The notes: generated from the letters alone by a model not told the origin. DNA of 64,000 nucleotides from Anaerolineae bacterium (GCA_049294015.1 JBAQCH010000024.1:62226-126225), one strand, 5' to 3'; positions 1-43,274 are shown, numbered from the stretch's first letter. Translations and numbers: made by a program.

Positions 1-2070
1 ATGGGCCTGATCTTCCTGCGCCACGCCTACAGCCGCTACCTGGGGGTCAGAGATGCGATCGTGGCCGGCCTGCCCAGCCGCGGCGGCGTGGCCCGCCCGC
101 TGACCAAGGAGGACTTCTCGCAGCGCAGCGCGATCTTCCTGCGGCCCGAGGCCCAGTTCGACCACCTGGTGGCGCTGACCGACCGCGACGACCGGGCCCG
201 GGCCATCATCGCCGCGATGGAGTCCATCGAGGCCGACTACGAGAACCTGCGCGGCGTGCTGCCCAAGAGCGAGTACCAGGAGCTGGACAACCAGGTGCTG
301 GGCCAACTGCTGCGCACCCTCAATCCCGACGAGCTGAAGCGGGTTTCCGGCGACGTCTTCGGCCGCATCTACGAGTACTTCCTGACCCAGTTTGCCGACC
401 AGAAGGCCCACGACGGCGGCGAGTTCTTCACCCCTGTCTCTCTGGTCTCGCTGATCGCCAACGTGCTGGCGCCGCAGGGCGGGCGAGTGCTGGACCCGGC
501 CTGCGGCAGCGGCGGCATGTTCGTGCAGAGCGCCCGCTTCGTGGAGCGCCAGCACGGCAACCCGGTGGAGAAGCTGACCTTCTACGGCCTGGAGAAGAAC
601 AGCACCACCATCCGCCTGGCCAAGATGAACCTGGCCGTGCATGGGCTGGAGGGGGACATCCAGCAGGCCATTACCTACTACGAGGACCCGCACGAGCTGC
701 TGGGCAAGGCCGATTTCGTCATGGCCAATCCCCCCTTCAACGTGGACGAGATCGACGCCGACAAGGTCAAGCGCGACCCGCGCCTGCCCTTTGGCCTGCC
801 GGGCGCCAACAAGAAGGGCAAGGTCTCCAACGGCAACTACATCTGGATCAGCTATTTCTACAGCTACCTGAACCAGCGGGGCCGGGCCGGCTTCGTCATG
901 TCCAGCCAGGCCTCCAGTGCGGGGCGGGACGAGGCCAGGGTGCGCCAGAAGCTGGTGGAGACGGGCGACGTGGACGTGATGATCGCGGTGCGCCCTAACT
1001 TCTTCTACACCCGCACCGTGCCCTGCGAGCTCTGGTTCCTCAACCGGGCCAAGTCGGCCGTGCCCTCATCCCCGGCCCTTCTCCCAGGGGGAGAAGGGAG
1101 TGTGGGCGGCGGCGCGCCGCTGAACCACAAGGGGTGCGTGCTGATGATCGACGCGCGCGCCATCTACCGCAAGGTGACGCGCAAGATCTACGACTTCAGC
1201 CCGGAGCAGGAGCAGAACCTGCTGGCGGTGGTCTGGCTGTACCGCGGGCAAAGCGATAAATACCTGGCGTTGGTGGCCAGCTACTGCCGGCGCACCCTGG
1301 ACGAGGCCGCGGCCTGTTTCCGCATGGCGGGCGAGAACGGCCAGCCGGTCGAGCCGCTGCCAGCCTTCGACGCCAGCCTGGCCGGCCTGCGGGCGGCGAT
1401 GCAACCCTTCCTGCACAGCCGAGCCGCTGATGGCCCGCAGGCCGGGCCGCAGCAGGAGCTGGCCGCCGCCGCGGCCCTCTTCCGCGCCGACGTGGACGCG
1501 TTCCGCGCCGCGCTGGCCGAACAGCAGGCGCTCTGGCAGGGCCAACAGACCAGCAACGGCGCGCTGCAAGCCGCCGTGGACAGGCTGGCGCCATTGGCCG
1601 AGATGAGCCGCGACCTGGTGCGGCAGAGTGACCTGCTGGTCAAGCTGGCCGCCCGGCTGATCGAAACGTGCGAGAAGGAATGCGAGGCCGGCGAGAGCGA
1701 CCTGTGGCCAAACCGGGAGATCAACCGGCTGCGCAGAGCCGCCGACGAGGCCCGTCAGGCCGCGGTGGAGCAACTCAAGCAGGTGCGCACCATCTGGCGG
1801 CAGGCCCACTGGCTGGTCGAGCGCTTCCCCGACGCCGAGCTGCGCGACGTGCCGGGGCTGGTCAAGCTGGTGGACGTGCAGGAGATCGCGGCCAACGACT
1901 GGAGCCTGACCCCCGGCCGCTACGTGGGCGTGGCCCCGGCCGAGGAGGACGAGGACTTCGACTTCGAGGAGGCGTTGCGCGAGATCCACGTGGAGCTGGA
2001 GGACCTGAACGCCGAGGCGGTGGAACTGGCGGCTACTATCCAGCGCAATTTCAAGGAGCTGGGAGTATGA
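1..2070 (+). CDS. hsdM: Type I restriction-modification DNA methyltransferase subunit HsdM; 5' end probably lies upstream of the window
   Basis: Translation contains HsdM N-domain-like LIFLRHAYSRYLG, AdoMet motif LDPACGSGGMF, catalytic NPPF (MANPPFNV) and a long helical C-terminal region. Conserved HsdM_N sequence sits at residue 1, so the true start is likely outside the window. Stop overlaps the next start as ATGA at 2067-2070. Confidence 0.9.
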   Translation: MGLIFLRHAYSRYLGVRDAIVAGLPSRGGVARPLTKEDFSQRSAIFLRPEAQFDHLVALTDRDDRARAIIAAMESIEADYENLRGVLPKSEYQELDNQVLGQLLRTLNPDELKRVSGDVFGRIYEYFLTQFADQKAHDGGEFFTPVSLVSLIANVLAPQGGRVLDPACGSGGMFVQSARFVERQHGNPVEKLTFYGLEKNSTTIRLAKMNLAVHGLEGDIQQAITYYEDPHELLGKADFVMANPPFNVDEIDADKVKRDPRLPFGLPGANKKGKVSNGNYIWISYFYSYLNQRGRAGFVMSSQASSAGRDEARVRQKLVETGDVDVMIAVRPNFFYTRTVPCELWFLNRAKSAVPSSPALLPGGEGSVGGGAPLNHKGCVLMIDARAIYRKVTRKIYDFSPEQEQNLLAVVWLYRGQSDKYLALVASYCRRTLDEAAACFRMAGENGQPVEPLPAFDASLAGLRAAMQPFLHSRAADGPQAGPQQELAAAAALFRADVDAFRAALAEQQALWQGQQTSNGALQAAVDRLAPLAEMSRDLVRQSDLLVKLAARLIETCEKECEAGESDLWPNREINRLRRAADEARQAAVEQLKQVRTIWRQAHWLVERFPDAELRDVPGLVKLVDVQEIAANDWSLTPGRYVGVAPAEEDEDFDFEEALREIHVELEDLNAEAVELAATIQRNFKELGV
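1063..1100 (+). repeat. ~38-bp palindromic element CCCTCATCCCCGGCCCTTCTCCC-AG-GGGGAGAAGGGAG inserted in-frame in hsdM (RPE-like)
   Basis: Perfect inverted repeat CCTTCTCCC/GGGAGAAGG. A near-identical copy (38/39) in opposite orientation lies inside hsdR at 13819-13857. Adds about 13 aa (SSPALLPGGEGSV) in-frame. Confidence 0.7.
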
Positions 2071-3092
2071 GCACCACAGAGTTATCCGTTCCAGATGATT
2101 ATGCAGTTCTGCTGGTCAAGGTCAAAGAACGGGTGCTTACTGCACAACTGCAGGCGTTCAGAGCGGTCAATACGGAGTTGATCGGCCTTTACTGGGATAT
2201 TGGGCGCATGATTGTGGAGAAGCAGGCTGGTGAGACTTGGGGCAAATCGGTCGTCCAACAACTGGCGGGGGATTTGCAGAATGAGTTCCCTGGCATCCGC
2301 GGTTTTTCCGCCTCCAATCTCTGGCGCATGAAGTCATTTTTTGAGACCTATGCAGCCTCGGAAAGACTCGCACAGCTTGTGCGAGAAATTGGCTGGGGCC
2401 ATAACTTGGTGATTCTAGCGCGCTGCAAAGATCCACTAGAGCGAGAATTCTACCTGCGCATGACCCGCAAGTTCGGCTGGTCGAGAAACGTGCTGGTCCA
2501 TCAGATTGAGAACCAGAGCTACGAGAAGACATTGCTTGGCCAGACCAACTTCGACAAAACGCTGTCGCCCGAACTGAGGGTGCAGGCAAGGCTAGCCGTC
2601 CGCGACGAGTACATCTTTGACTTTCTGGAACTGGACGAGCAGCACTCTGAGCGGGAGTTAGAACGAGCGCTGATTGGACGTATCGAGGAGTTTCTGCGCG
2701 CTTTGGGCGGAGTATTTGCTTTTGTGGGCAGCCAGTTCCGTCTGGAAGTTGACGATGAGGAGTTCTTCATTGATCTCCTGCTATACCATCGACGCCTGCG
2801 GGCGTTGGTGGCCATCGACCTCAAGATCGGCAAGTTCCAGCCGGAGTTCGTGGGCAAGATGCAGTTCTACTTAACGGCGCTGGACCGGCAGGTGCGCATG
2901 GAAGGCGAAAACCCCTCCATTGGTATCATTCTGTGCAAGGAAAAGAAGCGTACTATCGTCGAGTACGCCCTGTACGACGCCAGCAAGCCCATCGGCGTCG
3001 CCACCTATCGGGTTGTGCGCCAGTTGCCCAAAGACCTGCGCGGCCAGCTTCCCAGCCCGGAGGAGATCGCCAGACTCTTGGAGGAAGAGTGA
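2067..3092 (+). CDS. DUF1016/YhcG-family PD-(D/E)XK nuclease-like protein, inserted between hsdM and hsdS
   Basis: 341-aa product MSTTELSVPDDYAVLLVKVKERV...; N-terminal YhcG-like helical region and C-terminal nuclease-like core (EFFIDLLLYHRRLRALVAIDLKIGKF). ATG overlaps the hsdM stop (ATGA). Visibly lower GC than hsdM. Confidence 0.7.
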   Translation: MSTTELSVPDDYAVLLVKVKERVLTAQLQAFRAVNTELIGLYWDIGRMIVEKQAGETWGKSVVQQLAGDLQNEFPGIRGFSASNLWRMKSFFETYAASERLAQLVREIGWGHNLVILARCKDPLEREFYLRMTRKFGWSRNVLVHQIENQSYEKTLLGQTNFDKTLSPELRVQARLAVRDEYIFDFLELDEQHSERELERALIGRIEEFLRALGGVFAFVGSQFRLEVDDEEFFIDLLLYHRRLRALVAIDLKIGKFQPEFVGKMQFYLTALDRQVRMEGENPSIGIILCKEKKRTIVEYALYDASKPIGVATYRVVRQLPKDLRGQLPSPEEIARLLEEE

Positions 3093-3179
3093 TGGAGCAC
3101 CAAGGTGGAAGGGCAACAGGCACCAGACGGGCGCCTGGCGATGTTCCGGTATTCGGGCTTGGGCCTTCAGACATCTGCT

Positions 3180-3241
3180 GCACCGACGCGGTGGCGCTGG
3201 CCGCGACGATCAAGCGGAACTTCGAGGAGTTGGGGATATGA
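3180..3241 (+). pseudogene. Diverged duplicate of the hsdM 3' end (..DAVALAATIKRNFEELGI*), remnant at the cassette boundary
   Basis: Encodes AATIKRNFEELGI*, compared with the hsdM end AATIQRNFKELGV*; about 75% nt identity to 2017-2070. Its TGA overlaps the hsdS ATG (ATGA at 3238-3241). Confidence 0.6.
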
Positions 3242-4359
3242 GTTGGCAGCAGGCTCGACTCGCCGATATATCATCGATGAGAACGGGAAAGCTCGACTCA
3301 AATGCGGCCATTCCCGAGGGAGCGTATCCCTTTTTCACTTGCGCCCAGGAGACCTTGAGAATAGATGAACCTGCCTTTGACACAGAGGCGGTTCTACTGG
3401 GAGGAAACAACGCGGCAGGGATATTTCCCCTGAAGTACTACAACGGCCAGTTCAACGCTTACCAACGGACCTATGTGATCGAATCACTTGCACCAGATGT
3501 TCTGAATATCCGATATCTTTACTACGCTTTGCGTCCGGCTCTCGCACATTTTCAGTCTGCTTCTATCGGGGCCGCTACTCAGTATCTTACGAAGGGTATA
3601 CTGGACAATTTTCAAGTACCATTGCCCCCAGTTACTATTCAGAATCGCATCGTTATAATCCTCTCCGCCTACGACGACCTGATCGAGAACAACCGGCGGC
3701 GCATCCGCTTACTGGAGGAGGCGGCGCGGCTGCTCTACCGCGAGTGGTTCGTCCACCTGCGCTTCCCCGGTCACGAGCACGTGGCGGTGGTGGATGGCGT
3801 GCCAGAGGGGTGGGAGAGGAAGCGCCTAATCGAGGTTGCAGACATCAGGATGGGGCAAAGCCCGAAGTCCATCTACTACAATCAAGATGGTAACGGTCTT
3901 CCTTTTCATCAGGGAGTGAGCAACTTTGGCGGGAGATTCCCATCGCACGAAGTCTTCTGTACCATTTTAAGTCGGCTTGCAGAACCGGGCGACATTCTCT
4001 TTAGTGTACGGGCACCTGTTGGCAGGATCAACATTACACGCGACAAAATCGTGATTGGGCGCGGTTTGGCTGCAATTCGCTCCAACTGCGATCAGCAGAA
4101 TTTCCTTTTCTACGCATTGAAGAGCCATTTCTTCAAGGATGACATGATGGGCACTGGCGCGATTTTTGCCGCAATCACGAAGAATGACCTTCACGGCGTC
4201 CAACTGATGCATCCTCCGCTTCGACTCATCGAGATGTTTACGGAACATGCGCAACCGATTGATAGACAGATCGAGAATCTTCAACAGACAATCGATGGTC
4301 TTGTGAAAGCCCGCGACTTGCTCTTGCCGCGGTTGATGAATGGAGAGATCAGCGTATGA
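3238..4359 (+). CDS. hsdS: Type I RM specificity subunit HsdS (two low-GC target-recognition domains around a conserved central region)
   Basis: MSWQQARLADISS... start. Central conserved HsdS repeat region IVIILSAYDDLIENNRRRIRLLEEAARLLYREWFVHLRFPGHE and C-terminal conserved LVKARDLLLPRLMNGEISV. TRD segments are visibly AT-richer than the conserved core. Confidence 0.85.
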   Translation: MSWQQARLADISSMRTGKLDSNAAIPEGAYPFFTCAQETLRIDEPAFDTEAVLLGGNNAAGIFPLKYYNGQFNAYQRTYVIESLAPDVLNIRYLYYALRPALAHFQSASIGAATQYLTKGILDNFQVPLPPVTIQNRIVIILSAYDDLIENNRRRIRLLEEAARLLYREWFVHLRFPGHEHVAVVDGVPEGWERKRLIEVADIRMGQSPKSIYYNQDGNGLPFHQGVSNFGGRFPSHEVFCTILSRLAEPGDILFSVRAPVGRINITRDKIVIGRGLAAIRSNCDQQNFLFYALKSHFFKDDMMGTGAIFAAITKNDLHGVQLMHPPLRLIEMFTEHAQPIDRQIENLQQTIDGLVKARDLLLPRLMNGEISV

Positions 4360-7300
4360 ACTCTCCAAGAAGACAGCTCAGCAATTCGTTCTCAACTGGC
4401 GGTGGCGGCGGCCATTTCGAAGCACATCTACAGGCATCCTTTGTTGTTCTGATGCTTACCGGTGGACATGCACCTTGCCTGCCCTGTTGGCCAATCGTCA
4501 AGATCAAGCTGCAAGGAAGGATCGAAGGATTTGACACTGACGACCTGATCGTATTTGTTGAGAATGGCGATACTGGAGAAACACGGAAGCTCTTGGGACA
4601 GGTCAAGCATTCAGTTAGCATCACACAAAGCGACACCGTCTTTGGAGAAGTGATCCAGGCTGCTTGGAATGATTTCAACAATCCAACGGTCTTCACCCGC
4701 GGCAAGGATGTGATTGCGCTGATTACTGGTCCATTGAGCGCAACTGATACGCATAATGTGCAGTGGATATTGGGCCAAGCACGACACACAAGCGGAGTTG
4801 ACGAGTTCTACAGAAACGTCGAGCAAGCGAATTTTAGTCCGCCCAAGAGTGAGGAAAAGCTGGCAGCAATCCAGCATCACCTAAGGACCGCCAACAATGG
4901 CACCGCCGTTTCGCGAGAGGTTCTCTATGATTTCCTGAACCACTTCCATCTGTTAAGCTACGACTTAGGGACCGAGCATGGTGTTGTCTTGTCGTTGCTT
5001 CATTCACCTATCTCGCAGCGTAACCGAAATGCCCCGCAAATGCTTTGGTCGCGGGCTGTGGACATCGTACAAACCTGGAATCAAGATGCTGGAACGATCA
5101 CTCGGGAACGGCTTCCCGAGGATCTGGTGGACGCGTTTGAGCCTACCATCATAGCCCATATTCCCGAAGAGTTGACAACCAAAGATCTCGAAACTCAGAA
5201 AACTGACTGGGATCGGCATCAATACGCCTCCGATTTGGCTCTCGCAAATCTTGTTGGTGCATGGGATGAGAAAAGCGCCGCAGATATTGAAGCCTTGACC
5301 GGAGTAATTGGGATAGAGTATGCAACGTGGGTCAAGGAAGCACGAGAGATCTTACACCTTCCCGGTAGTCCTCTGTCACTCAAAAACGGCGAGTGGAAGG
5401 TTACTGAGCGGGCTGAACTGTGGTCTTCTCTGGGTTCGCGCGTTTTCGATCAACATCTTGACTCCTTCAAGGCTGCAGCTATTGCCGTGTTGAGGGAACG
5501 CGACCCGGCTTTTGATCTTTCACCTGAAGATCGCTTTGTGGCGAGTCTCCGAGGAAAAGCTCCCCATCACAGTTCAGTGCTCAGAATGGGCCTGGCTAAT
5601 GGATTAGCGATTCTGGGCAATCATGCGGGCGCATTAGCCAACTGTTCACGCGGAAAAGCAGAGGCCACCGTAATCTTGGCGATTCGGGAGATTTTCACTG
5701 ACGCTGATTGGAAGCTCTGGGCAAGCCTGAATAACCTTTTACCTGTCATGGCCGAAGCCGCACCCAATGAATTTCTCGATGCTGTGGAGAATGCTCTGCA
5801 GCAGTCACCTTGTCCCTTTGATGAACTCTTCGCTCAGGAAGAGAGTGGCATTATGGGGAGGAACTACCTGACCGGACTACTCTGGGCATTGGAAGGACTA
5901 GCATGGGATGAGCATTACCTTGTCAGAGTTTGTGTTATACTGGGGGAACTTGCCAGTCATGATCCTGGCGGCAACTGGACAAATCGCCCAATCAACTCTC
6001 TGATAACAATCCTTCTTCCATGGTATCCGCAGACTCTTGCACCAATCGAGAAGCGCCAAGTTGCAGTCAGGACGCTCTGCAAAGAGTCGCCAGGTATCGG
6101 TTGGAACTTGATCATTCAGTTGCTGCCTAATCAGCACCGGACATCCTCAGGTTCACATAGACCTTCATGGCGCAAGATAATTCCAGAAGACTGGGAAAGT
6201 GGTGTCTCAGGCCAAGAGTACTGGCAACAGGTGTTCTTCTATGCGGAGCTTGCTGTCTCGATGGCAGACTATGATGCTGCTAGACTCGCCGAACTCATCG
6301 AACACCTTGATAAGCTGCCAAGTTCAGCACTCGATCAACTTCTAGGGGTTCTGTCTTCGGACGCAATCTCAGGTCTTCCCGAAGAACAGCGGCTTCTGCT
6401 TTGGGATCAACTTACGAAGTGCATCATCAGACACAGGCGCTATTCCGAAGCAAAATGGGCATTTGACGACGATCGCATTTCTCAGATCGAGGCAGTGGCC
6501 AACGCCGTGGCACCAGAGAATCCTTTGATTCGATATCAGCCACTTTTTTCCGCTAATGACTTTGACCTCTACGAAGGACGAGATGATTGGCGGCAACAGC
6601 AAGAAAGACTGAACGAGCGGCGTCTGCATGCTATAGAGGAAATACTCAGAACCGGCGGAGTCGATGCAGTCATCGAACTTGCGAAATCGGTCATCTCCCC
6701 AATCCAGGTCGGATACATACTCGGAAGCATCGCTGATTCGATCATTGACTCTGAACTGCTTCCTAAGTATCTGGACTCGGAAACCAGTCAGATCATATCA
6801 TTCATCCGCGGCTATGTTTCAAGCCGGTTCACAGTGAATGGATGGCCTTGGGTGGATGGTCTGGATAGATCGACATGGAGCCTTGAACAGAATGCGATAT
6901 TCCTGAGTTGCTTGTCGTTCTCAAAGGACACTTGGGATCGAGCCGATCAATGGTTGGGTGAAGAACAAGGGGAGTATTGGTCGAGAACTAGTGCAGTTCC
7001 ATATGGAACTGACGAGGATTTGCATGCTGCCGTTGAGAAGTTGATCGACTACGGCAGACCTCAGGCTGCAATTCGCTGTTTGGACAGCATGCGTCATGAC
7101 AACCGACCGCTTGATGTCACGCAATGTATTCGAGTGCTACTAACCACCGTGTCTTCATCTGAACCTGTGGACTCGATGGCCAGGTATCATATTGTCGAGC
7201 TCATCAAATACCTTCAGAACAACTCTGAAGTGCCCTCGGATGATATCGCCAACATAGAATTGATATATCTTCCCCTACTGGATCATGACCAGGGAGTAGC

Positions 7301-7904
7301 GCCCAAACTGTTGGAGCTGCGTCTGGCCACCGATCCTTTATTCTTTTGTGAAGTACTGCAACTCATCTATCGTTCACGGAATGAGGGTGCACCTCGAACT
7401 GAGCCAACCGAGTTATCAAGGGCGATTGCGTCACACGGCTGGCAATTACTTCATCACTGGCAAACGGTGCCTGGAATACAAGAGGATGGTAGTTTCGATG
7501 AAGACCGATTTTCGGCTTGGCTTCGTCGCGTACAAGAGATTTGCACTGATTCGGGCCATATAGACGTTGCGCTCAGCACCATCGGCGAGGTTTTGATATA
7601 CTCTCCTGCCGATGCAACTGGTTTATGGATAAATCGTACGGTAGCGGAGGCGCTAAACGCGCGCGATGCAGAAGATATGCGAACTGGCTTTCGCATGGGA
7701 GTACTCAACTCTAGGGGTGTTCACTTGGTTGATCCCACTGGACAACCGGAACGAGAATTGGCGGAACAGTTCCGTCAGAAAGCAGACGATGTTGAAAACG
7801 TCGGTTTTCAGCGTTTCGCGGTCACGCTTAGGGATCTTGCCGAGAGATACGATCGCGAAGCCGAGCAAATAATCGCCGACCATCGTCAGGAAGCCGCTGA
7901 ATGA
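4356..7904 (+). CDS. Large uncharacterised protein (1182 aa), lower GC, mostly predicted helical; possible N-terminal PD-(D/E)XK-like nuclease motifs. Candidate novel defence component.
   Basis: Long uninterrupted ORF; start ATG overlaps the hsdS stop (ATGA). No Walker A, DEAD or HNH motif seen. N-terminal 90 aa contain HFEAHL ... FDTDDLIVFVENGDTGETRKLLGQVK, a possible E / D / (Q)xK arrangement. Remainder is Leu/Ala-rich with Trp/Asp periodicity, suggestive of alpha-solenoid repeats. Confidence 0.7.
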   Translation: MNSPRRQLSNSFSTGGGGGHFEAHLQASFVVLMLTGGHAPCLPCWPIVKIKLQGRIEGFDTDDLIVFVENGDTGETRKLLGQVKHSVSITQSDTVFGEVIQAAWNDFNNPTVFTRGKDVIALITGPLSATDTHNVQWILGQARHTSGVDEFYRNVEQANFSPPKSEEKLAAIQHHLRTANNGTAVSREVLYDFLNHFHLLSYDLGTEHGVVLSLLHSPISQRNRNAPQMLWSRAVDIVQTWNQDAGTITRERLPEDLVDAFEPTIIAHIPEELTTKDLETQKTDWDRHQYASDLALANLVGAWDEKSAADIEALTGVIGIEYATWVKEAREILHLPGSPLSLKNGEWKVTERAELWSSLGSRVFDQHLDSFKAAAIAVLRERDPAFDLSPEDRFVASLRGKAPHHSSVLRMGLANGLAILGNHAGALANCSRGKAEATVILAIREIFTDADWKLWASLNNLLPVMAEAAPNEFLDAVENALQQSPCPFDELFAQEESGIMGRNYLTGLLWALEGLAWDEHYLVRVCVILGELASHDPGGNWTNRPINSLITILLPWYPQTLAPIEKRQVAVRTLCKESPGIGWNLIIQLLPNQHRTSSGSHRPSWRKIIPEDWESGVSGQEYWQQVFFYAELAVSMADYDAARLAELIEHLDKLPSSALDQLLGVLSSDAISGLPEEQRLLLWDQLTKCIIRHRRYSEAKWAFDDDRISQIEAVANAVAPENPLIRYQPLFSANDFDLYEGRDDWRQQQERLNERRLHAIEEILRTGGVDAVIELAKSVISPIQVGYILGSIADSIIDSELLPKYLDSETSQIISFIRGYVSSRFTVNGWPWVDGLDRSTWSLEQNAIFLSCLSFSKDTWDRADQWLGEEQGEYWSRTSAVPYGTDEDLHAAVEKLIDYGRPQAAIRCLDSMRHDNRPLDVTQCIRVLLTTVSSSEPVDSMARYHIVELIKYLQNNSEVPSDDIANIELIYLPLLDHDQGVAPKLLELRLATDPLFFCEVLQLIYRSRNEGAPRTEPTELSRAIASHGWQLLHHWQTVPGIQEDGSFDEDRFSAWLRRVQEICTDSGHIDVALSTIGEVLIYSPADATGLWINRTVAEALNARDAEDMRTGFRMGVLNSRGVHLVDPTGQPERELAEQFRQKADDVENVGFQRFAVTLRDLAERYDREAEQIIADHRQEAAE

Positions 7905-8191
7905 CCCATAACTGCGACACCGAAGGCACCCTCGTCCAACAGACCACCACCGAGCATCTGCATCAGCACCTCGGATGGCGGGCGGTCTATGCCTACAACC
8001 GCGAGGACTTCGGAGCGGGCGGTCTGCTGGGGCGGGCATCGGACCAGGAGGTGGTACTGACGCGGCCGTTGCGTGCCAAGCTTGTCGAGCCGAACCATGA
8101 CTTGGCCGACGCGGCCTGCCAAGACCCTGCATTACGACTCAACAATGCCAAATACGGGCTTGAAACGATGAATGGAGAGATCAGCGCATGA
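7901..8191 (+). pseudogene. Remnant fusion of the hsdR 5' end (about 190 nt, ~80% identical to 12340-12530) and the hsdS 3' end (ETMNGEISA*); recombination scar between cargo 1 and cargo 2
   Basis: Encodes TEGTLVQQTTTEHLHQHLGWRAVYAYNREDFGAGGLLGRASDQEVVLTRPLRA (hsdR N-terminus is TEDTLVQQTTADYLEQQLGWRSVYAYNREDFGPDSLLGRASDREVVLTRPLRA) and ends with ..MNGEISA* (hsdS ends ..MNGEISV*). The 24-nt atgaatggagagatcagcg(t/c)atga is shared by 4336-4359 and 8167-8190. Confidence 0.6.
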
Positions 8192-10293
8192 AAGCCACCG
8201 AAGCCAACTTGCTGGATTTCCTTAAGAAGTCACCTCAGTTTGTAATCCCGATCTACCAACGCACGTATAGCTGGACCGAGCGCGAATGCCGCCAGCTTTG
8301 GGATGACATCCTGCGCACCGGCAGCAACGACGCCATCGCCGCCCATTTTGTCGGTTCTATCGTCTACATCGAGAAGGGTCTATATCAGGTCACAAGCCAG
8401 TCGCCGCTGTTGGTGATCGACGGCCAGCAACGACTGACGACCGTCATGTTGATCCTGGAAGTGCTGGCGCGCCACGTGGGAAACAGCGAGCCGGTCGATG
8501 GTTTCTCGGCCAGGAAACTCCGCAGCTACTACCTGCTTAACCCGCTGGAGGACGGTGAACGGCACTTCAAGCTGCTGCTTACGCAGACTGATAAGCAAAG
8601 TCTCCTGGCGATGGTGCAGCAGAAGCCTCAGCCCGTCGAGCCGTCGCTGCGCATCGCGGACAACTTCGCCTTCTTCGAAGAGCAGATCAAGGCCCTCGGG
8701 AAGAACCTGACACCGCTGTGCAAAGGGTTGGCAAAGCTCGTGATCGTCGACATCTCACTGAGCCGGGATCAGGACAACCCGCAGCTCATATTTGAGAGTA
8801 TGAACTCGACTGGCCGTGAGTTGAGCCAGGCCGACCTGATTCGCAATTTCATTTTGATGGGGCTGGAGCCAGCCCAACAGACGCAGCTTTACGAAGATCA
8901 CTGGCGGCCGATGGAGGTTGACTTCGGCCAGGAGGCCTACGGCACCCAGTTCGACAGCTTCATGCGTCATTACCTGACTTTGAAGACTGGCGATATCCCC
9001 AATGTCCGTGCCGTTTACGAGGCGTTCAAGTCTCACGCCCGCTCTCCAGAAGTTGTGGCAGCAGGCATCGAGGCCTTGGTTGAAGACATCCATCGCTATG
9101 CTGGCTACTATTGTGCGATGGCTTTGGACAAGGAATCCAGCAAGGAGTTGGCAGAAGCCTTCCGGGATCTGCGCGAGATGAAGGTCGATGTGGCGTATCC
9201 ATTCCTTCTGGAACTGTACCACGACTTTGCCGAGGGGGTGTTGCCTGAAGCCGATTTCCTCCAGGCCGTGCGGTTGGTGGAGGCTTACGTGTTCCGCCGG
9301 GCCGTGTGCGCAATTCCTACCAACTCTCTCAACAAGACCTTCGCCACGTTCAGACGCGCCCTCAAGAAAGAGCGCTACATTGAGAGTATCCAGGCGCATT
9401 TCCTCACATTGCCGTCCTATCGCCGTTTCCCCAACGATGAGGAGTTCAAGCGCGAGTTGTCCATTCGTGATCTCTACAATTTTCCCCGTCGTAGCTATTG
9501 GCTGCGACGCCTGGAGAATTTTGACCGGAAGGAGCGAGTGTCGGTGGGTGAATACACCATCGAACACATTCTTCCCCAGAACGAGAACCTTTCCGTCGCA
9601 TGGCGTCAGTCGCTCGGTCCAGAGTGGCGACGTATACAAGAAACCTGGCTGCACACACTGGGGAATCTCACATTGACGGGCTACAATGCCGAGTACAGCG
9701 ATCGACCGTTCCAGGAAAAACGAGATATGCCGGGCGGGTTCAAAGAGAGCCCACTGCGGCTCAATCAAGGACTTGGTGCACTGGACGCGTGGAACGAAGC
9801 TGCCATTCAGGCACGGGCGAAGCATCTTGCCGAAAAGGCCGTCAAGGTATGGGCAGCGCCCGCCCTATCGGACGCCGTGCTCGAGACCTACCAGTCAAAG
9901 GCCGAAAAGTCTGTTGGCTATAGCATCTCCGACCATCCACATGTGGCTGAAGGCGGGACCATGCAGGCCCTGTTTGAGCAACTCCGCAAGGAGATCCTGG
10001 CGCTGGACCCTTGCGTTTCCGAGGAGATTCTCAAGCTCTACATCGCCTACAAAGCTGAGACCAACTTCGTGGACATCGTGCCACAGAAGAGTCGCCTCCG
10101 CCTCTCTCTCAACATGCACTTTCACGAGTTGAACGACCCCAGGGAGATGGCCAAAGATGTGACCAATCTGGGCCGCTGGGGAAATGGCGACGTGGAGGTC
10201 GGCCTGAATCAACCGGAGGACATACCCTATGTCATGGGTTTGTTGCGTCAGGCCTTTGAGAAACAGATGGGCAACGGGATAGAGACGGAATGA
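8188..10293 (+). CDS. GmrSD-family fused DUF262 (ParB/Srx-like NTPase) plus DUF1524 (His-Me/HNH-like nuclease) protein; likely type IV modification-dependent restriction enzyme or BrxU/SspE-like effector
   Basis: N-terminal DUF262 hallmarks IPIYQRTYSWTERECRQLWDD and VIDGQQRLTT. C-terminal DUF1524-like region with EYTIEHILPQN. ATG overlaps the upstream remnant stop (ATGA). Confidence 0.85.
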   Translation: MKATEANLLDFLKKSPQFVIPIYQRTYSWTERECRQLWDDILRTGSNDAIAAHFVGSIVYIEKGLYQVTSQSPLLVIDGQQRLTTVMLILEVLARHVGNSEPVDGFSARKLRSYYLLNPLEDGERHFKLLLTQTDKQSLLAMVQQKPQPVEPSLRIADNFAFFEEQIKALGKNLTPLCKGLAKLVIVDISLSRDQDNPQLIFESMNSTGRELSQADLIRNFILMGLEPAQQTQLYEDHWRPMEVDFGQEAYGTQFDSFMRHYLTLKTGDIPNVRAVYEAFKSHARSPEVVAAGIEALVEDIHRYAGYYCAMALDKESSKELAEAFRDLREMKVDVAYPFLLELYHDFAEGVLPEADFLQAVRLVEAYVFRRAVCAIPTNSLNKTFATFRRALKKERYIESIQAHFLTLPSYRRFPNDEEFKRELSIRDLYNFPRRSYWLRRLENFDRKERVSVGEYTIEHILPQNENLSVAWRQSLGPEWRRIQETWLHTLGNLTLTGYNAEYSDRPFQEKRDMPGGFKESPLRLNQGLGALDAWNEAAIQARAKHLAEKAVKVWAAPALSDAVLETYQSKAEKSVGYSISDHPHVAEGGTMQALFEQLRKEILALDPCVSEEILKLYIAYKAETNFVDIVPQKSRLRLSLNMHFHELNDPREMAKDVTNLGRWGNGDVEVGLNQPEDIPYVMGLLRQAFEKQMGNGIETE

Positions 10294-10391
10294 GTTTCAC
10301 CGAAGACACCCTCGTCCAACAGACCACCGCCGACTACCTCGAACAGCAGCTCGGCTGGCGCTCGGTCTACGCCTGTAACGATGGAGAATAA
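10290..10391 (+). pseudogene. Near-identical duplicate of the hsdR 5' end (about 85 nt, ~97% identical to 12343-12428) ending in a degenerate junction (..VYACNDGE*)
   Basis: ttcaccgaagacaccctcgtccaacagaccaccgccgactacct.gaacagcagctcggctggcgctcggtctacgcct is shared with the hsdR start. ATG overlaps the GmrSD stop (ATGA at 10290-10293). Confidence 0.6.
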
Positions 10392-12033
10392 CAGCATGAG
10401 CATTGAAGGTCAGGATTGGGACCGCAAGTCGCTACGCTTCGTCGAAGGACGTTCCGCCAACTGGGACGAAGTCGCCAAAGACTGTGTGGCCTTTGCCAAT
10501 GCGCAGGGCGGCGGGTTGTTGATCGGTATCGAGGATGATGCATGGGCGCCGCCGGCGGGTCAGCGTATTGCGGACGAACTGATCGAACGTGTGCGCCGCC
10601 GGATCGGCGAGCTGACTGTGAATGTCACCTGCGCGGTGCAGCGAGAATTGTCCGCTGAAACCGGCGGCGAATTTCTGCGGGTGACTGTTTCTCGCTCTCA
10701 TGCCCCTGCATCTACCACCGATGGCCGCTACTACTTTCGCATTGCGGACGAGTCCAAACCCCTCGTGGGCGAACAAGTTCAACGCCTGCTCAACGAGCGC
10801 AACGCTCAGCCCTGGGAGACGCTGACGACTCTCAGCGTGCCGCGCGGCCAGACGGATCCGGCCAAGCTTGCGGCGTTCACTGCGGCTATTCGGGCATCCA
10901 GCCGGGTCAAGGCGTCGGTCAAGGAGAAGGGCGACGCGGAATTGCTGGATCACTACTACCTGGCCATCGATCGCCACCTGACCAACCTGGGCATTCTCTG
11001 TGTCGGACGCAGGCAGGATCGTGTTCAACTGGGCGCAGCGCCGGTGATTCAGTTCATCAAGTACGATCAGGATGATCGCAAGGTCAGCAAACTCTCCTGG
11101 GATGATCACTCTCTGACGCCGATGGAACTGGTGGAGGCAGTGTGGCGGGAGGTTCCGGATTTCCGCGAGACCTATGAACTGCCGGACGGCCTGTTTCGAC
11201 AATACCTGCCGGCCTATGACCAGCGGGTGGTACGGGAACTACTCGTCAACGCGTTGGTGCATCGACCATACACCCAACGGGGCGACATCTATCTGAATCT
11301 TTACCCGGATCGATTGCAGGTCGTCAATCCAGGATTACTACCTTTGGGTGTCACTCCTCAGACCATCCTGCACCAATCGGTGCGGCGAAACGATGAGATG
11401 GCGCGCGTGTTTCACGATCTGGGGCTGATGGAGCGTGAGGGCAGCGGGTATGATCTGCTTTACGAGGTCTTGACTTCGCAGGGACGAAAGCTGCCAGAAG
11501 TTCGTGAGGGAAGTGATCGGGTCGAAGTGGTCGTTTACCGGCGCGTAATCAAGCCCGTGGTGATTGATTTCCTGTCCAAGGCGGACGCTGCGTACCACCT
11601 AACGCAACGTGAACGAATAGCGCTGGGAATTCTGGTTCAATACGATGCTCTGACGATGCGAGAGCTAGCCAATCTCCTGGAGTTGCAGGACACATCGTCT
11701 GTGAATTTCTGGATCGAGAGGCTTCTGGAATGGAGAATTGTTAAGCAGGTTGGAAAAACAAGCGGGACCCGCTATTTTGTCGATCCCGATCTACTGGACA
11801 GGATGAACTTTCCAAGTAAGACAACCCTTGCTCGTATTGAGACTCATCGACTCCGTGCCCTGATTTTGGAGGATTTGCGAAGACATCCAGGTTCTTCCAC
11901 AAGTAAGATGCGTGAGCGCATTGGAGATGAGATCCCTATGCAACAAATTCGCAGGCAGCTCGCCATTCTGACAAAGGAAGGCCTAGTAGTGTTTCGAGGA
12001 GATAAACGCTGGCGTCGGTACTGGCCGACATGA
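10381..12033 (+). CDS. Schlafen-like AlbA_2 (divergent AAA) domain protein with HATPase_c_4-like middle region and C-terminal winged-helix; ATP-binding putative DNA-binding regulator or defence protein
   Basis: N-terminal AlbA_2 signature E..K.LRFVE...W.EVAKDCVAFANAQGGGLLIGIEDD. Middle RELLVNALVHRPY...GDIYLNLYPDRLQVVNPG matches the HATPase_c_4/RecG-C-like motif. C-terminal region is wHTH-like. 3' third is AT-richer. Confidence 0.75.
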   Translation: MENNSMSIEGQDWDRKSLRFVEGRSANWDEVAKDCVAFANAQGGGLLIGIEDDAWAPPAGQRIADELIERVRRRIGELTVNVTCAVQRELSAETGGEFLRVTVSRSHAPASTTDGRYYFRIADESKPLVGEQVQRLLNERNAQPWETLTTLSVPRGQTDPAKLAAFTAAIRASSRVKASVKEKGDAELLDHYYLAIDRHLTNLGILCVGRRQDRVQLGAAPVIQFIKYDQDDRKVSKLSWDDHSLTPMELVEAVWREVPDFRETYELPDGLFRQYLPAYDQRVVRELLVNALVHRPYTQRGDIYLNLYPDRLQVVNPGLLPLGVTPQTILHQSVRRNDEMARVFHDLGLMEREGSGYDLLYEVLTSQGRKLPEVREGSDRVEVVVYRRVIKPVVIDFLSKADAAYHLTQRERIALGILVQYDALTMRELANLLELQDTSSVNFWIERLLEWRIVKQVGKTSGTRYFVDPDLLDRMNFPSKTTLARIETHRLRALILEDLRRHPGSSTSKMRERIGDEIPMQQIRRQLAILTKEGLVVFRGDKRWRRYWPT

Positions 12034-12333
12034 TGTTCTATCGAACAAAAAGCACTGAATTCAATGCAAAAATGCTAACACTGTTACTTAAATGAGATTG
12101 TTGACTTCCGTAGCGCGATACATTGCTGATGCATTGCTTGTTTCGATTTCTATATATTGTATTCAATAAGTTATCTGATACTATATGTAGTGATTGTCAA
12201 AGACAAGTAAAGCCTAGAATCCCGATTCTCGCTGAAAATTCTATCTAACAAATCCTGTTGAGTTTTCGTGAATTGTCAATTAGCTGTTCGTTAGGCAGAC
12301 GTTTACAAGTGCGCAACATATGAGAAATGACCG
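12034..12333 (+). promoter_or_regulatory. 300-bp strongly AT-rich intergenic island directly upstream of hsdR; candidate promoter region (for example TTGTAT-16-TACTAT at 12157-12184) and probable 3' edge of the last inserted cassette
   Basis: AT-rich sequence (for example ctatatattgtattcaataagttatctgatactatatgtagtgattgtcaaag) contrasts with the GC-rich flanks. The promoter hexamers are a weak call because the AT richness produces many matches. Confidence 0.35.
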
Positions 12334-15300
12334 ATGAAGGCTGATCGATTCACCGAAGACACCCTCGTCCAACAGACCACCGCCGACTACCTGGAACAGC
12401 AGCTCGGCTGGCGCTCGGTCTACGCCTACAACCGCGAGGACTTCGGGCCGGACAGCCTGCTGGGCCGGGCGTCGGACCGGGAGGTGGTGCTGACGCGGCC
12501 GCTGCGCGCCGCGCTGGCCGCGCTCAACCCGGACCTGCCCGCCGCGGCCTACGACGACGCCGTGCGCCAGCTCGTCAGCGTGACAGCCACCCAGTCGCTG
12601 CTGGCAACGAACCGCGAGAAGTATACCCTGATCCGCGATGGCGTGCCGGTCAGTTTCCGCAACGCCAGGGGCGAGCTGGAGCGGCGCCGGCTGCGGGTGA
12701 TCGACTTCGCCGACCCGGCCGCCAACGACTTCCTCTGCGTGCGCGAGCTGTGGGTGCGGGGCGACCTCTACCGGCGGCGGGCCGACATCGTGGGCTTCGT
12801 CAACGGCCTGCCCCTGCTCTTCATGGAGCTGAAGAACGTCAGCCGGGACATCCGCGCCGCCTACGAACGCAACTTCAAGGACTACCTGGATACCGTGCCC
12901 CACCTGTTCCACCACAACGCGGTGGTGGTGCTGGCCAACGGCGTGGACGCCAAGCTCGGCTCGCTGACCAGTCGCTTCGAGCACTTCCACGAGTGGAAGC
13001 GGCTGGACGAGGACGAGCCGGGCGTGGTGGACATGGAAACCCTGCTCAAGGGCATCTGCCAGCCGGCCAACTTCCTGGACCTGGTGGAGAACTTCATCCT
13101 CTTCGACGACTCGGCCGGCGAGCCGAGGAAGATACTGGCCCGCAACCACCAGTTCCTGGGCGTCAACCGCGCCATCCGGGCTGTGGAGGAGCGCCGCCAG
13201 CGCCAGGGCAAGCTGGGCGTCTTCTGGCACACCCAAGGCGCGGGCAAGAGCTACTCCATGGTCTTCTTCACGCGCAAGGTGCATCGCAAGCTGGGCGGCA
13301 ACTTTACCTTCCTGGTGCTCACCGACCGGGAGGACCTGGACACGCAGATCTACAAAACCTTTGCCGGCTGCGGCGTGGTGGACAACGACCGCGATCCCTG
13401 CCGGGCGGCCGGCGGCCAGCATCTGAACCAACTGCTGACCCTGCACAAGGCGTACATCTTCTCGCTGATCCAGAAGTTCAACCGCGACGTGGAGCCGGAT
13501 CAGCCCTACAGCGAGCGGGAGGACATCATTGTCATCAGCGACGAGGCCCACCGCAGCCAGTACGGCAGCCTGGCGCTGAACCTGCGCAACGCGCTGCCCA
13601 ACGCCAGCTCGATCGGCTTCACCGGCACGCCCCTCTTCAAGAATGACGAGATCACCCGCCGCGTCTTCGGCGACTACGTTTCCACCTACGACTTCCAGCG
13701 CGCGGTGGCGGACAAGGCCACTGTGCCCCTTTACTACGACGCGCGCGGCGACAAGCTGGGCGTGGTTACCGACGACCTGAACGAGCGCATCGCCGAGAAG
13801 CTGGAGGAGATGGAAAACTCCCTTCTCCCCACGGGAGAAGGGCCGGGGATGAGGGGATTCGACATCGACGTCGCCCAGCGGCTGGAGCGCGAGCTGGAGC
13901 GGGACTATCACGTCATCACCGCCGGTAAGCGGCTGGATCAGATCGCCCAGGACTTCGTCGAGCACTATTCAACCTCTTGGGAGACCGGCAAGGCGATGCT
14001 GGTCTGCATCGACAAGGTGACCTGCGTGCGCATGCACAAGCTGGTCGGGTTCTACTGGGATCAGCGCATCAAGGCGCTGGAGCGAGCAGCGCCCGCGGCG
14101 ACCGACGAGCAGGACGAGCAATATCGCCGTCGCCAGATCGAATGGATGCGCGCGACCCGCATGGCTGTGGTGATCAGCGAGGAGCAGGGCGAGGTGGCTA
14201 GATTCCAGCAGTGGGGATTGGACATCACGCCCCATCGCCGCCTCCTCAAGGAGGGCATGGACCTGCCGGAGGCCATGCGCCAGCAGCCCCAGTACCGCGC
14301 CATGCAGCGCCTGGCCCTGGACGATGCCTTCAAGGCCGAGCAGCACCCCTTCCGCATCGCCATCGTCTGCGCCATGTGGCTGACCGGCTTCGACGTGCCC
14401 AGCCTGGCGACGCTCTACCTGGACAAGCCACTCAAGGCCCACACCCTGATGCAGGCCATCGCGCGCGCCAACCGGGTCAACGAGGGCAAGAACAACGGCC
14501 TCCTCGTGGACTACTGCGGCATCCTCAAGAACCTGCGCCAGGCCCTGGCCACCTTTGCCGGCGCAGGGGATGGCGGCCGCGACGGCGACGGCGGCGAGAT
14601 CGACCCGGCCCGCCCTGAGCAGGAGCTGCTGGCCGATCTGGCTGAGGCCGTCGCGCTGGTGCAGGCGTTTTTGGCCGAACGGGGAGCGTCGCTGGATGCC
14701 ATCATCAGCCAGGCAGGCTTCGCCCGCAACGCGGCCATCCTGGCGGCCAAGGAAGCGGCCAACCAGAACGACGCGACGCGCAAGCGCTTCGAGGTCATGT
14801 GCCGGGCGGTGTTCAGCAAGTTCAAGGCTTGTCTGACCCTGGCCGGCGTCAACGCCCACCGGCGCGACAAGAGCGCCATCGACATCGTCTACCAGAGCCT
14901 GCAAGCCGACCGCGCGCAGGCCGACATCAGCGCCATCACGCAGGAATTGCACGAGATCGTCGACCAGGCCATCGCGGTGTGGCGCAGCCCGACAGCCGCT
15001 GACCGGGCGCCGTACGACATCAGCCAGATCGATTTCGAGCGCCTGCGACGGGAGTTCGAACGCAGCCCCGCCCAACGCACCACTGTGCAGAATCTCAAGA
15101 CTGCCATCGAGCGCCGCCTCCAGCGCCTGCTGGCGCAGAACCCCCTGCGAGCTGACTTGCAGCGGCGCTACGAGGAGATCGTGGCCGACTACAACCGCGA
15201 GAAGGACCGCCTGACCATCGAGCAGACCTTTGAGGAATTGCTGCGCTTCGTGCAAGCCATGGACGAGGAGGAGACGCGCGCCGCACGCGAGGGATTGACC

Positions 15301-15627
15301 GAGGAAACGCTAGCCGTGTTCGACCTGCTCAAGAAGCCTGAGCTGGCGCCGCAGGAGATCGAGCGCATTAAGAGGGTGGCGGGCGACTTGCTGGCGACGC
15401 TCAAGGCCGACAAGCTGCGCGTCGAGCAGTGGCAGGACAAGGAGGCCACGCGCGACGCCGTGCGCCAGGCCATCCTCGATTTCCTGTGGAACGACAGCAC
15501 CGGCCTGCCGGTCGGCCGCTACAGCGAGCGTGATGTGCAGGCGCGCGCCGACGTGGTCTATCAGCACGTCTTCCGGGTCTATCCCAGGCTGCCCTCGCCC
15601 TATTACGAGCTGCGCATGGCCGCGTAA
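12334..15627 (+). CDS. hsdR: Type I restriction enzyme R subunit HsdR (SF2 helicase/nuclease)
   Basis: 1097 aa; Walker A GVFWHTQGAGKSYSMVFF, DEAH box VISDEAHRSQYG, helicase motifs; long helical C-terminus. High GC like hsdM. Confidence 0.9.
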   Translation: MKADRFTEDTLVQQTTADYLEQQLGWRSVYAYNREDFGPDSLLGRASDREVVLTRPLRAALAALNPDLPAAAYDDAVRQLVSVTATQSLLATNREKYTLIRDGVPVSFRNARGELERRRLRVIDFADPAANDFLCVRELWVRGDLYRRRADIVGFVNGLPLLFMELKNVSRDIRAAYERNFKDYLDTVPHLFHHNAVVVLANGVDAKLGSLTSRFEHFHEWKRLDEDEPGVVDMETLLKGICQPANFLDLVENFILFDDSAGEPRKILARNHQFLGVNRAIRAVEERRQRQGKLGVFWHTQGAGKSYSMVFFTRKVHRKLGGNFTFLVLTDREDLDTQIYKTFAGCGVVDNDRDPCRAAGGQHLNQLLTLHKAYIFSLIQKFNRDVEPDQPYSEREDIIVISDEAHRSQYGSLALNLRNALPNASSIGFTGTPLFKNDEITRRVFGDYVSTYDFQRAVADKATVPLYYDARGDKLGVVTDDLNERIAEKLEEMENSLLPTGEGPGMRGFDIDVAQRLERELERDYHVITAGKRLDQIAQDFVEHYSTSWETGKAMLVCIDKVTCVRMHKLVGFYWDQRIKALERAAPAATDEQDEQYRRRQIEWMRATRMAVVISEEQGEVARFQQWGLDITPHRRLLKEGMDLPEAMRQQPQYRAMQRLALDDAFKAEQHPFRIAIVCAMWLTGFDVPSLATLYLDKPLKAHTLMQAIARANRVNEGKNNGLLVDYCGILKNLRQALATFAGAGDGGRDGDGGEIDPARPEQELLADLAEAVALVQAFLAERGASLDAIISQAGFARNAAILAAKEAANQNDATRKRFEVMCRAVFSKFKACLTLAGVNAHRRDKSAIDIVYQSLQADRAQADISAITQELHEIVDQAIAVWRSPTAADRAPYDISQIDFERLRREFERSPAQRTTVQNLKTAIERRLQRLLAQNPLRADLQRRYEEIVADYNREKDRLTIEQTFEELLRFVQAMDEEETRAAREGLTEETLAVFDLLKKPELAPQEIERIKRVAGDLLATLKADKLRVEQWQDKEATRDAVRQAILDFLWNDSTGLPVGRYSERDVQARADVVYQHVFRVYPRLPSPYYELRMAA
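13819..13857 (-). repeat. Second copy of the ~38-bp CCCTCATCCCCGGCCCTTCTCCC..GGGAGAAGGGAG palindromic element, inverted orientation, in-frame inside hsdR
   Basis: The reverse complement of 13819-13857 matches 1063-1100 at 38/39 nt. Encodes SLLPTGEGPGMRG in HsdR. Confidence 0.7.
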
Positions 15628-42742: not shown

Positions 42743-43234
42743 CTAAACGCTTCCTAACAGCCACTGCGCCAACGAACGAATTTCGATGGTCATACCATCC
42801 TGTTGGATTGGCTCGGCATTGACCTCGGTCAGAATCAGCCCGCGTTCGAGTCCCAAAGCGCTCATGCCATCGCGTAGTACGCGTATTTTCCGCTCTCGAA
42901 CGCCGCTTTGATCAAGGTTCTGAGCAACCTGGACCAGCATGCGCTGCTCAGGCAGGTAGAAATCGACTTCGAAGCCACCAGGCGTTGTGTAATAGAAGAT
43001 CTCTTGCGTTTGGCGCCGCAACGCCAGGAAGATCACGTTTTAGAGTAAGCGCCCGCTGTTGGGCGAGAACGCGTGGGGCAGGGGCGCTGCGCGCGTTAGC
43101 TGCGCCAACTGATCGCGTGGAATGCCCGTGTCACGCTCCCAGAATCCCTGGGCCTGCTCCAGCAGCATGGCGCGAATCTGGTCTCTCGACCATCTGTTTC
43201 GCCAATAGTTTTCATTCATAATGAAATGATACAC
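42743..43234 (-). pseudogene. Truncated AAA+ ATPase of the DUF4143 family (N- and C-terminal fragments in the same frame, separated by a stop; ATPase core missing)
   Basis: The C-terminal fragment ..EIFYYTTPGGFEVDFYL.. matches the DUF4143 C-terminal motif; the total length of about 160 aa compares with roughly 400 aa expected. Confidence 0.45.
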
Positions 43235-43274
43235 CTAAATGATTTCATTGACAATGAAATCATTTAGGTGTATC
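43228..43274 (+). repeat. 47-bp perfect AT-rich palindrome (23-bp arms gatacacctaaatgatttcattg / caatgaaatcatttaggtgtatc, 1-nt centre)
   Basis: Read directly from the sequence; overlaps the stop of the permease gene and the start of the truncated ATPase. Confidence 0.8.

Follow-up and report, generated by a model that had tools for sequence, protein, structure and literature searches.

Introduction

Rickettsia palindromic elements (RPEs), reportedly described by Ogata and colleagues in 2000, are repeats of ~100-150 bp that are restricted to Rickettsia, and we know of no endonuclease that is associated with them. RAYTs have been linked to REPs through an arrangement in which the gene of the enzyme is flanked by the repeats. 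The repeats of Enterobacteria and Cyanobacteria that are termed BoxC, PIT or TMECO (Bachellier; Hoyne and Maher 2000) were first recognised in the 1990s. TMECO, the earlier BoxC or PIT element, has the motif CCCTCNCCC N3-6 GGGNGAGGG N3 GGGNGAGGG, and occurs 23 times in E. coli K-12, where it is always intergenic, and 3,610 times in 262 proteobacterial genomes (Holder et al. 2015, PMC4666352). According to the same paper, triplex motifs rich in G/C abound in cyanobacteria, TMECO forms an intrastrand triplex in vitro and it is tied to local rearrangement or genome instability. No genetic-mobility activity has ever been found near TMECO, no associated genes have been reported, and there is no hint of a general role in gene regulation (PMC4666352); PIT elements were without promoter or terminator activity in earlier work cited there. 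Kaplan et al. (2016, PMC5100583), whose paper includes the block sequences of these repeats, have described conserved E. coli G-quadruplex motifs as a switch between G-quadruplex, hairpin and duplex. We report here on two copies of a related unit, which reside within the hsdM and hsdR genes of a type I restriction-modification (R-M) operon in a stretch of 64,000 nucleotides from an Anaerolineae bacterium (GCA_049294015.1 JBAQCH010000024.1:62226-126225). The whole of this 64-kb stretch is termed the window hereafter. The BoxC-type three-block repeats are probably the ends of an in-frame cassette that encodes a DUF559 nuclease, such that the hsdM copy would be a remnant of this cassette and the hsdR copy a single end-unit.

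Results

Two copies of the unit in the window

The 23-mer CCCTCATCCCCGGCCCTTCTCCC is detected at exactly two sites in the window, 1063-1085 on the plus strand and 13833-13855 on the minus strand. A third site is absent from the window even when three mismatches are allowed, and none of 100 dinucleotide-preserving shuffles matches this 23-mer. Likewise, neither a hairpin pattern nor relaxed family patterns detect any site in the 64 kb besides copies 1 and 2, both of which are located within the R-M operon. This result confirms the two copies reported at 1063-1100 and 13819-13857 in the original prediction, which was made from the sequence of the window.

Copy 1 (1063-1100, plus strand) consists of an outer C-block CCCTCATCCCC at 1063-1073, a GG spacer, a C-arm at 1076-1085, the loop AGG, a G-arm at 1089-1098 and AG. 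Copy 2 (13818-13857, minus strand) is inverted relative to copy 1, and consists, in the order of the plus strand, of CT, a C-arm at 13820-13829, the loop CAC, a G-arm at 13833-13842, a CC spacer and an outer G-block GGGGATGAGGGG at 13845-13856. The two copies are identical at 36 of 38 positions, not at 38 of 39 as originally predicted, and differ only at two loop bases (AGG versus GTG). The stem, for which 9 bp had been given, is a perfect 10-bp stem in both copies, in which CCCTTCTCCC and GGGAGAAGGG are separated by the 3-nt loop, and the energy of the DNA hairpin is predicted from the computed fold to be -10.7 to -12.7 kcal/mol. As read from the sequence, the architecture of both copies includes a CC spacer followed by GGGGATGAGGG as a second G-block. 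This second G-block (GGGATGAGGG) agrees with the mirror image of GGGAGAAGGG at nine of ten positions and departs from it only by a T in place of an A; such mirror symmetry is what the triplex model demands. The G-rich strand of the unit contains four G-tracts. A stop codon is present in just one of the six frames in which the unit can be read (GGA TGA GGG), and this explains why loops tolerate in-frame copies. Searches of Rfam around copy 1 give sub-threshold chance matches only.

Insertions in hsdM and hsdR

Copy 1 is hosted by the type I R-M methylase gene hsdM (1-2070, plus strand; Pfam N6_Mtase at E=3e-71 and HsdM_N), of which ~36 N-terminal codons are lost to the edge of the window. Copy 2 is hosted by the intact hsdR gene (12334-15627, plus strand), which encodes the restriction subunit with the Pfam domains HSDR_N, SWI2_SNF2, ResIII, T1R_D3-like and T1RH-like_C. 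The reading frames of both genes are unbroken across the copies, as had been predicted.

The insert in HsdR is exactly 13 residues long (LLPTGEGPGMRGF, aa 497-509) and is missing in 115 of the closest 120 orthologues, which are 75-100% identical to the window protein and come from many bacterial phyla and methanogens. The DNA of an empty hsdR allele (L026) reads ..gagatcagc|gacatc.., and the window contains 39 bases more at this position. The insert in HsdM, the extent of which was defined by protein alignment of 120 orthologues and by empty-site DNA (L114), is 21 residues or 63 nt long (1063-1125 on the plus strand, aa 355-375, PSSPALLPGGEGSVGGGAPLN), as compared with orthologues of 704 residues. 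In this insert, the unit is followed by another outer block, which is degenerate (GTGGGCGGCGG), and by a tail (..CCGCTGAAC) that is also present in cassette-bearing alleles. Hence the predicted addition of ~13 residues to each protein holds for HsdR, but not for HsdM. One other HsdM (P0121) likewise carries 21 extra residues, and other length variants of HsdM represent unrelated inserts. Because almost all orthologues are without either insert, both inserts are, as judged from these alignments, true in-frame insertions that are lineage-specific, as the original prediction had proposed.

The R-M genes of the window are 75-88% identical at the protein level to orthologues of many bacterial phyla and methanogens. 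This high identity across phyla argues that these genes have been exchanged horizontally and are not evidently native, contrary to what had been presumed.

DUF559 cassettes at the HsdM site

Six HsdM orthologues of 851-875 residues (P0140, P0142, P0155, P0156, P0164 and P0213) carry an in-frame insert of 147-168 residues at the exact site of the window insert, and the Pfam content of this insert is DUF559 and MTES_1575. In the DNA of two cassettes (L028 and L030), the left end is arranged as CCCTCATCCCC-GG-CCCTTCTCCC-loop-GGGAGAAGGG-AG, the middle is a DUF559 frame with neither a start nor a stop codon, and the right end is arranged as CCCTTCGCCC-loop-GGGAGAGGGG-CT-GGGGGTGAGGG-T. Across the six cassette-bearing orthologues, the left boundary is CCCTCATCCCC-GG-CCCTTCTCCC-loop-GGGAGAAGGG and the right boundary is hairpin-NN-GGGGGTGAGGG, and the junctions in the protein are ..KPDQ|PSSP.. 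and ..GGEG|QNIV... Because the ends of the L028 and L030 cassettes show the arrangement of the window unit, the window unit is, by its sequence, the terminal inverted repeat of a DUF559 cassette.

Three parts of such a cassette persist in the window HsdM insert, namely its left unit, its right outer block in degenerate form and the tail ..APLNHKG... The tail xPLN(H/R)KG is restricted to cassette-bearing alleles (..GPLNRKGH..), whereas empty alleles read ..PEAHRDK... The hsdM copy is most likely the remnant that was left when the endonuclease frame was deleted between two hairpins at a hot site. Each hairpin is its own inverted repeat, and therefore the two hairpins are also direct repeats of each other, between which such a deletion would have occurred.

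Generality of the repeat-bounded cassette

A scan with the DUF559 core of the cassette (A1), for which one genome per species was taken, gave 80 loci from at least ten phyla, including Verrucomicrobiota, Planctomycetota, Acidobacteriota, Nitrospirota, Chloroflexota, Omnitrophota, Desulfobacterota, Bacteroidota, Pseudomonadota and others. The end repeat is present on the left side at 69 of these 80 loci, on the right side at 74 and on both sides at 66, and the cassette is mostly 420-445 bp long (~430 bp) when measured from outer block to outer block. About 70 of the 80 loci are located in-frame within long open reading frames (ORFs) of HsdM, HsdR, HsdS or Eco57I-like proteins, ~65 of the 80 being within long open frames that match the HsdM or HsdR of the window. 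Other loci are within HsdS or Eco57I-like methylase-specificity fusions, and ~8 are stand-alone. HsdM and HsdR are each occupied at three sites (near aa 104-116, 186 and 362-374 for HsdM, and near aa 230, 284-293 and 391-393 for HsdR), and closely related cassettes use at least eight different sites across several host genes. Although their host sites are unrelated, cassettes from different host genes share 50-72% identity, which indicates that the cassette moves. Some cassettes (L087-L090, L093 and L094) are preceded by a further two or three units in a tandem or nested arrangement, suggesting that the unit can be duplicated locally.

The same arrangement is detected around DUF559 genes that are not inserted into a host gene. 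Of 12 stand-alone DUF559 genes, all from cultured bacteria and located on plasmids or chromids, at least 11 have units with this architecture in their flanks, no more than 200 nt away. These units are lineage-specific in the sequence of their blocks, which is CCCCCCTCCC..CCTCCCCC/GGGGGAGG in Deinococcus and CCCCCC/GGGGGG in Pseudanabaena, so that architecture and gene covary. With a generic unit detector, there are 3.3 hits per kb in the flanks of the stand-alone genes, as compared with 0.057 per kb in 122 kb of background, where all seven hits are inside hsdM or hsdR genes that carry known units or cassettes. In two plasmids of Synechocystis sp. B12 (L116 and L117), a DUF1156 methylase gene and a BREX pglX gene are interrupted by cassettes that have these end repeats. 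The cassettes are out of frame with the host, and what is left of each host frame is annotated as separate ORFs, either because the genes could be pseudogenes or because of possible assembly errors in G/C runs. In E. coli K-12, the DUF559 gene is ycjD (1,351,407-1,351,760, minus strand, NC_000913.3). On its 3' side (L115, 1351204-1351760), the stop codon of ycjD coincides with a degenerate hairpin, after which come a partial duplicate of the ycjD 3' end and then TMECO no. 9, which is located 168 nt downstream of the stop codon. The ycjD segment in phylogroups A, B1 and C occupies the place of the eefRABCD operon in other E. coli (PMC12817139).

Recurrent occupation of the HsdR site

At exactly 39 nt, the copy in hsdR is a clean single unit, which consists of the hairpin and one outer block. 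The filled HsdR alleles are not the nearest relatives of each other: the window allele is nearest to an empty one (P0004, 87%), and another filled allele (P0005) is also nearest to an empty one (P0006, 88.7%). Among 80 metagenomic relatives of HsdR, five more are filled at the copy-2 site with units that differ, among them a T-variant that has a TTAT loop and departs from the window copy at the right junction, a C-variant (CCCCTCTACC/GGGAGAGGGG) and one that is partly deleted. Thus at least four unit variants are found at this site, and the stems remain paired across them. Because the filled alleles are scattered among empty relatives and their units differ, either units have been inserted at the HsdR site more than once, or the unit there has been exchanged or reshaped with the pairing of its stem preserved. 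It is possible that the hsdR copy represents the insertion of a single unit, or that it represents the decay of a cassette.

Stems that stay paired across variants may also be expected if the unit is a nucleic-acid element that is retained by the host, either because units capable of forming a hairpin, a triplex or a G-quadruplex tune the expression of the R-M genes, for instance through pausing of the polymerase or the ribosome, or because the inverted copies 12.7 kb apart serve as a recombination switch, by which the segment between hsdM and hsdR would be inverted or deleted to give phase variation. The inverted orientation of the two copies with their 36/38 identity and the four G-tracts agree with this explanation, relatives of the unit show triplex and G-quadruplex or hairpin behaviour in published work, and DUF559 proteins and N6-methylases are among the genes enriched for flanking inverted repeats in a survey of predicted programmed inversions. 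However, inversion between the copies would disrupt both genes, RecA-dependent exchange would have to rely on a short stretch of 38 bp, the inserts are not needed for most orthologues to work, and the lack of promoter or terminator activity of PIT and of a general regulatory role (PMC4666352) does not favour a function in expression. Retention by the host for such a function is therefore very improbable. The enrichment in the programmed-inversion survey may instead be caused by the ends of DUF559 cassettes.

Solo units elsewhere

A degenerate search with the 23-mer detects the unit in 25 unrelated viral contigs (L001-L025), and nearly all of these sites run on into a variable loop and the G-arm. 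The viral solo units are mostly located in gaps of <50 nt between co-directional genes. Their purine arm GGGAGAAGGGAG is located ~9-25 nt (often ~10) 5' of the next start codon and resembles a sequestered Shine-Dalgarno sequence; a Shine-Dalgarno role for units of the viral type does not apply to the intragenic copies. Some viral solo units are in-frame within ORFs, for example those of a DnaG-like primase, a portal-MuF protein and a HerA-like protein, where they are located between Pfam domains. The unit is found between genes as well as in each of the three reading frames. Uniqueness of the motif to the two sites, which the original prediction had named as a refuting result, holds within the 64 kb, but worldwide the motif is common. 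The original prediction of an RPE-like mobile repeat is accurate as to behaviour, in that the unit is in-frame, translated and repeated elsewhere, but not as to family: the architecture is that of BoxC/PIT/TMECO, the role as a cassette end was missed, and the family of solo units is one that has already been described and is neither new nor related to RPEs.

The abundance of solo units with no DUF559 gene nearby raises the question of whether a small repeat spreads autonomously, like an RPE or a miniature inverted-repeat transposable element (MITE), by host replication or repair, such as template switching mediated by the hairpin, or by an unknown enzyme, with DUF559 being secondary and either landing in units or being captured between them. 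The clean 39-nt single unit of hsdR, the presence of several unit variants at one HsdR site and the absence of mobility genes near the E. coli copies (PMC4666352) are all compatible with this explanation. On the other hand, chance capture poorly explains why inverted units bound 66 of the 80 DUF559 cores and why the unit covaries with the lineage, and the hsdM copy shares both its site and a cassette-specific tail with full cassettes. We regard autonomous spread as rather unlikely.

Nuclease and protein structure

The cassette core A1 matches PDB entry 3HRL at E=5e-21 and the catalytic domain of I-Bth0305I (3R3P) at E=1e-3. The invariant residues of A1 are D55, E66, D68, H72 and D79, of which D55, E66, D68 and H72 align with catalytic or mutated positions of I-Bth0305I. 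From these matches, the cassette nuclease is a PD-(D/E)xK enzyme of the Vsr or EDxHD fold, and it is probably active. A purine-purine mismatch (CCCTCTACC / GGGAGAGGG; CCCTCGCCCC / GGGGAGAGGG) recurs in many right-hand hairpins and in the 'mm' types of E. coli.

In an AlphaFold2 model of the cassette-bearing HsdM P0156 (mean predicted local distance difference test (pLDDT) score of 62), the repeat-encoded peptides at 385-425 and 521-537 are coil with pLDDT <50, and flank a folded alpha/beta domain. A model of the window HsdR suggests that the insert is a coil between two helices, but the mean pLDDT of 48.8 is too poor for mapping. The window HsdR is similar to EcoR124I HsdR at E=8e-34, with the insert site being outside the alignment. 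Both window copies are translated as a predicted Pro/Gly/Ser-rich coil. The P0156 model, together with the solo units between Pfam domains of the phage primase and the portal-MuF protein, suggests that the repeat peptides are tolerated as linkers. That the peptides are predicted to be coil between structured segments would also be expected if Pro/Gly-rich loops were selected at the protein level as adaptive linkers, with the likeness of the DNA being a by-product or the result of convergence. This possibility is hardly conceivable, because the DNA of the two copies is nearly identical in opposite orientations, because the DNA unit is present also in intergenic regions and in all three frames, and because the stem arms covary.

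Other features of the window

Other defence-type genes split the type I operon between hsdM/hsdS and hsdR (2070-12330). They comprise a YhcG/DUF1016 PDDEXK nuclease, a 1182-aa ORF without a Pfam match (4356-7904), a 96-aa ORF, a GmrSD-family endonuclease (8188-10293) and a Schlafen/AlbA_2-HATPase_c_4 protein (10381-12033). The G+C content of this region is 51-57%, as compared with ~62% elsewhere in the window. A perfect A/T-rich palindrome of 47 bp, with arms of 23 nt and 1 nt between them, is located at 43228-43274 in an otherwise G+C-rich region and adjoins the start of a 741-aa ORF on the minus strand. A tandem array at 58593-59152 contains 8.4 copies of a 66-bp unit with 92% matches, and every unit of this array holds the inverted repeat ACGTCACGTT..AACGTGAC.

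Discussion

The interpretation that the repeats in hsdM and hsdR are ends of an in-frame DUF559 cassette suggests the following mechanism. The cassette of ~430 bp, the sole content of which is a DUF559 frame, would survive in-frame within hsdM, hsdR, hsdS or Eco57I-like genes, so that the DUF559 nuclease would be made as part of the host protein. The nuclease would cut at or near the hairpin, a triplex, another non-B structure or a stem mismatch, and recombinational repair would then copy or delete the cassette, spreading cassettes and leaving solo units. In this manner DUF559 would mobilise the repeats, and a deletion would have produced the hsdM copy. The preference for R-M and defence methylase genes might reflect their horizontal lifestyle, their tolerance of insertions or a benefit from the tethered nuclease.

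Several observations weigh against this interpretation. Neither a target-site duplication nor a common target sequence is found in the comparisons of filled and empty hsdR and hsdM alleles or at the junctions, the consensus at the junctions amounting to no more than A|CCCTCA and GAGGG|T. No empty allele is closer than 88% identity to a cassette-bearing HsdM, which is too distant to fix the boundaries and the recency of the insertion. In a full-length comparison, the window HsdM is nearest to empty alleles, so that it is the site and the tail only that argue for its descent from a cassette-bearing ancestor. No full cassette is found at the copy-2 site of HsdR in 120 orthologues, 80 genome loci and 80 metagenome loci; because the hsdR copy has one outer block and no full cassette is found there, this copy need not stem from a cassette at that position. 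The R-M host bias derives from a single DUF559 subfamily, for which HsdM inserts served as the seed. Searches with narrow and broad hidden Markov models detect no DUF559 gene in either the window or any of the 25 viral loci. Therefore both window copies are now passive, solo units far outnumber cassettes, and mobilisation would have to act in trans. Finally, the putative link between DUF559 and the repeats is one of sequence arrangement. With these points taken into account, the cassette-end interpretation remains the probable one.

By analogy with RAYTs and REPs, DUF559 proteins may be the enzymes that generate and spread BoxC, PIT and triplex-motif repeats, and the cassettes may form a distinct selfish class, although we propose this only tentatively and at somewhat less than an even chance. 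The orphan BoxC/PIT/TMECO repeat would thereby gain a candidate enzyme, with YcjD as the candidate in E. coli; the basis for this proposal is the location of DUF559 genes within inverted, lineage-matched units across phyla, E. coli ycjD included. If this proposal is true, the cassettes constitute an intein-like class without splicing, which is parasitic on defence methylase, specificity and restriction genes and leaves translated solo repeats behind. The window shows that BoxC-type repeats can reside inside coding sequence, and the concentration of in-frame endonuclease cassettes in R-M and defence methylase genes bears on R-M annotation, on domain insertions and on the variation of defence systems. 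The intragenic, translated state of the repeat and its role as the end of a DUF559 cassette appear to be undescribed in the literature searched, which largely excluded subscription journals and in which no paper links DUF559 or ycjD to BoxC or TMECO.

Comparison with known systems

The unit resembles BoxC/PIT/TMECO in that a C-block, a loop of 3-6 nt, a complementary G-block, a spacer of 2-3 nt and a mirror-related second G-block follow one another, and also, as judged from the sequence, in that the G-rich strand has G-tracts capable of forming a G-quadruplex. The spacer is CCG in type B of TMECO, but CC in the window copies. The window copies miss the exact TMECO pattern, because their blocks are 10 nt long with TTCT / AGAA, their spacer is 2 nt long and their outer block is GGGGATGAGGG, the published block being 9 nt long. 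In contrast, the blocks of the C-variant copies around DUF559 are nearly identical to those of TMECO and fit the published pattern. Because the exact pattern is not matched by the window copies although the C-variant copies fit it, the window copies are classified as a variant of BoxC/PIT/TMECO. They differ from the E. coli K-12 TMECO, which is intergenic, in being intragenic and translated, and from TMECO in the literature searched, where no mobility gene is reported, in being tied to a DUF559 cassette.

The resemblance to RPEs is that a palindromic repeat is inserted in-frame in ORFs and adds a peptide without destroying the protein. The unit reported here differs from RPEs in that it is 38-39 bp long, is present across phyla and is unrelated in sequence. 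Like MITEs, the solo units have their ends in common with a larger coding element and outnumber it. Unlike MITEs, they show no target-site duplication, the common solo form is a single end rather than a pair of ends, and the partner is not a known transposase.

The cassette resembles inteins and EDxHD homing endonucleases such as I-Bth0305I (PMC3239194, PMC2677866) in that it is a selfish in-frame insert with an endonuclease of the Vsr fold, occupies conserved sites of conserved genes that are exchanged horizontally, and has the catalytic residues in common with them. It differs from inteins in that it lacks a Hint or splicing domain, Pfam detecting only DUF559 and MTES_1575 in the 147-aa insert, and in that the insert, to judge from its sequence, apparently stays in the mature host protein. 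It differs from EDxHD homing endonucleases in that the cassette loci have no intron or intein context and are bounded by hairpin inverted repeats.

The REP/REPIN-RAYT system resembles the cassette in that the gene of an enzyme is located between inverted copies of a hairpin repeat and that far more solo copies are dispersed. Flanking of the REP/RAYT type is found at 66 of the 80 loci, at the plasmid loci and, in part, at E. coli ycjD. The two systems differ in their enzyme, which is a Vsr-like PD-(D/E)xK protein of DUF559 / MTES_1575 here and an HUH Y1 transposase in the case of RAYTs, and in their repeat, which here has no GTAG head and consists of three blocks, and the DUF559 cassettes are located in-frame inside genes.

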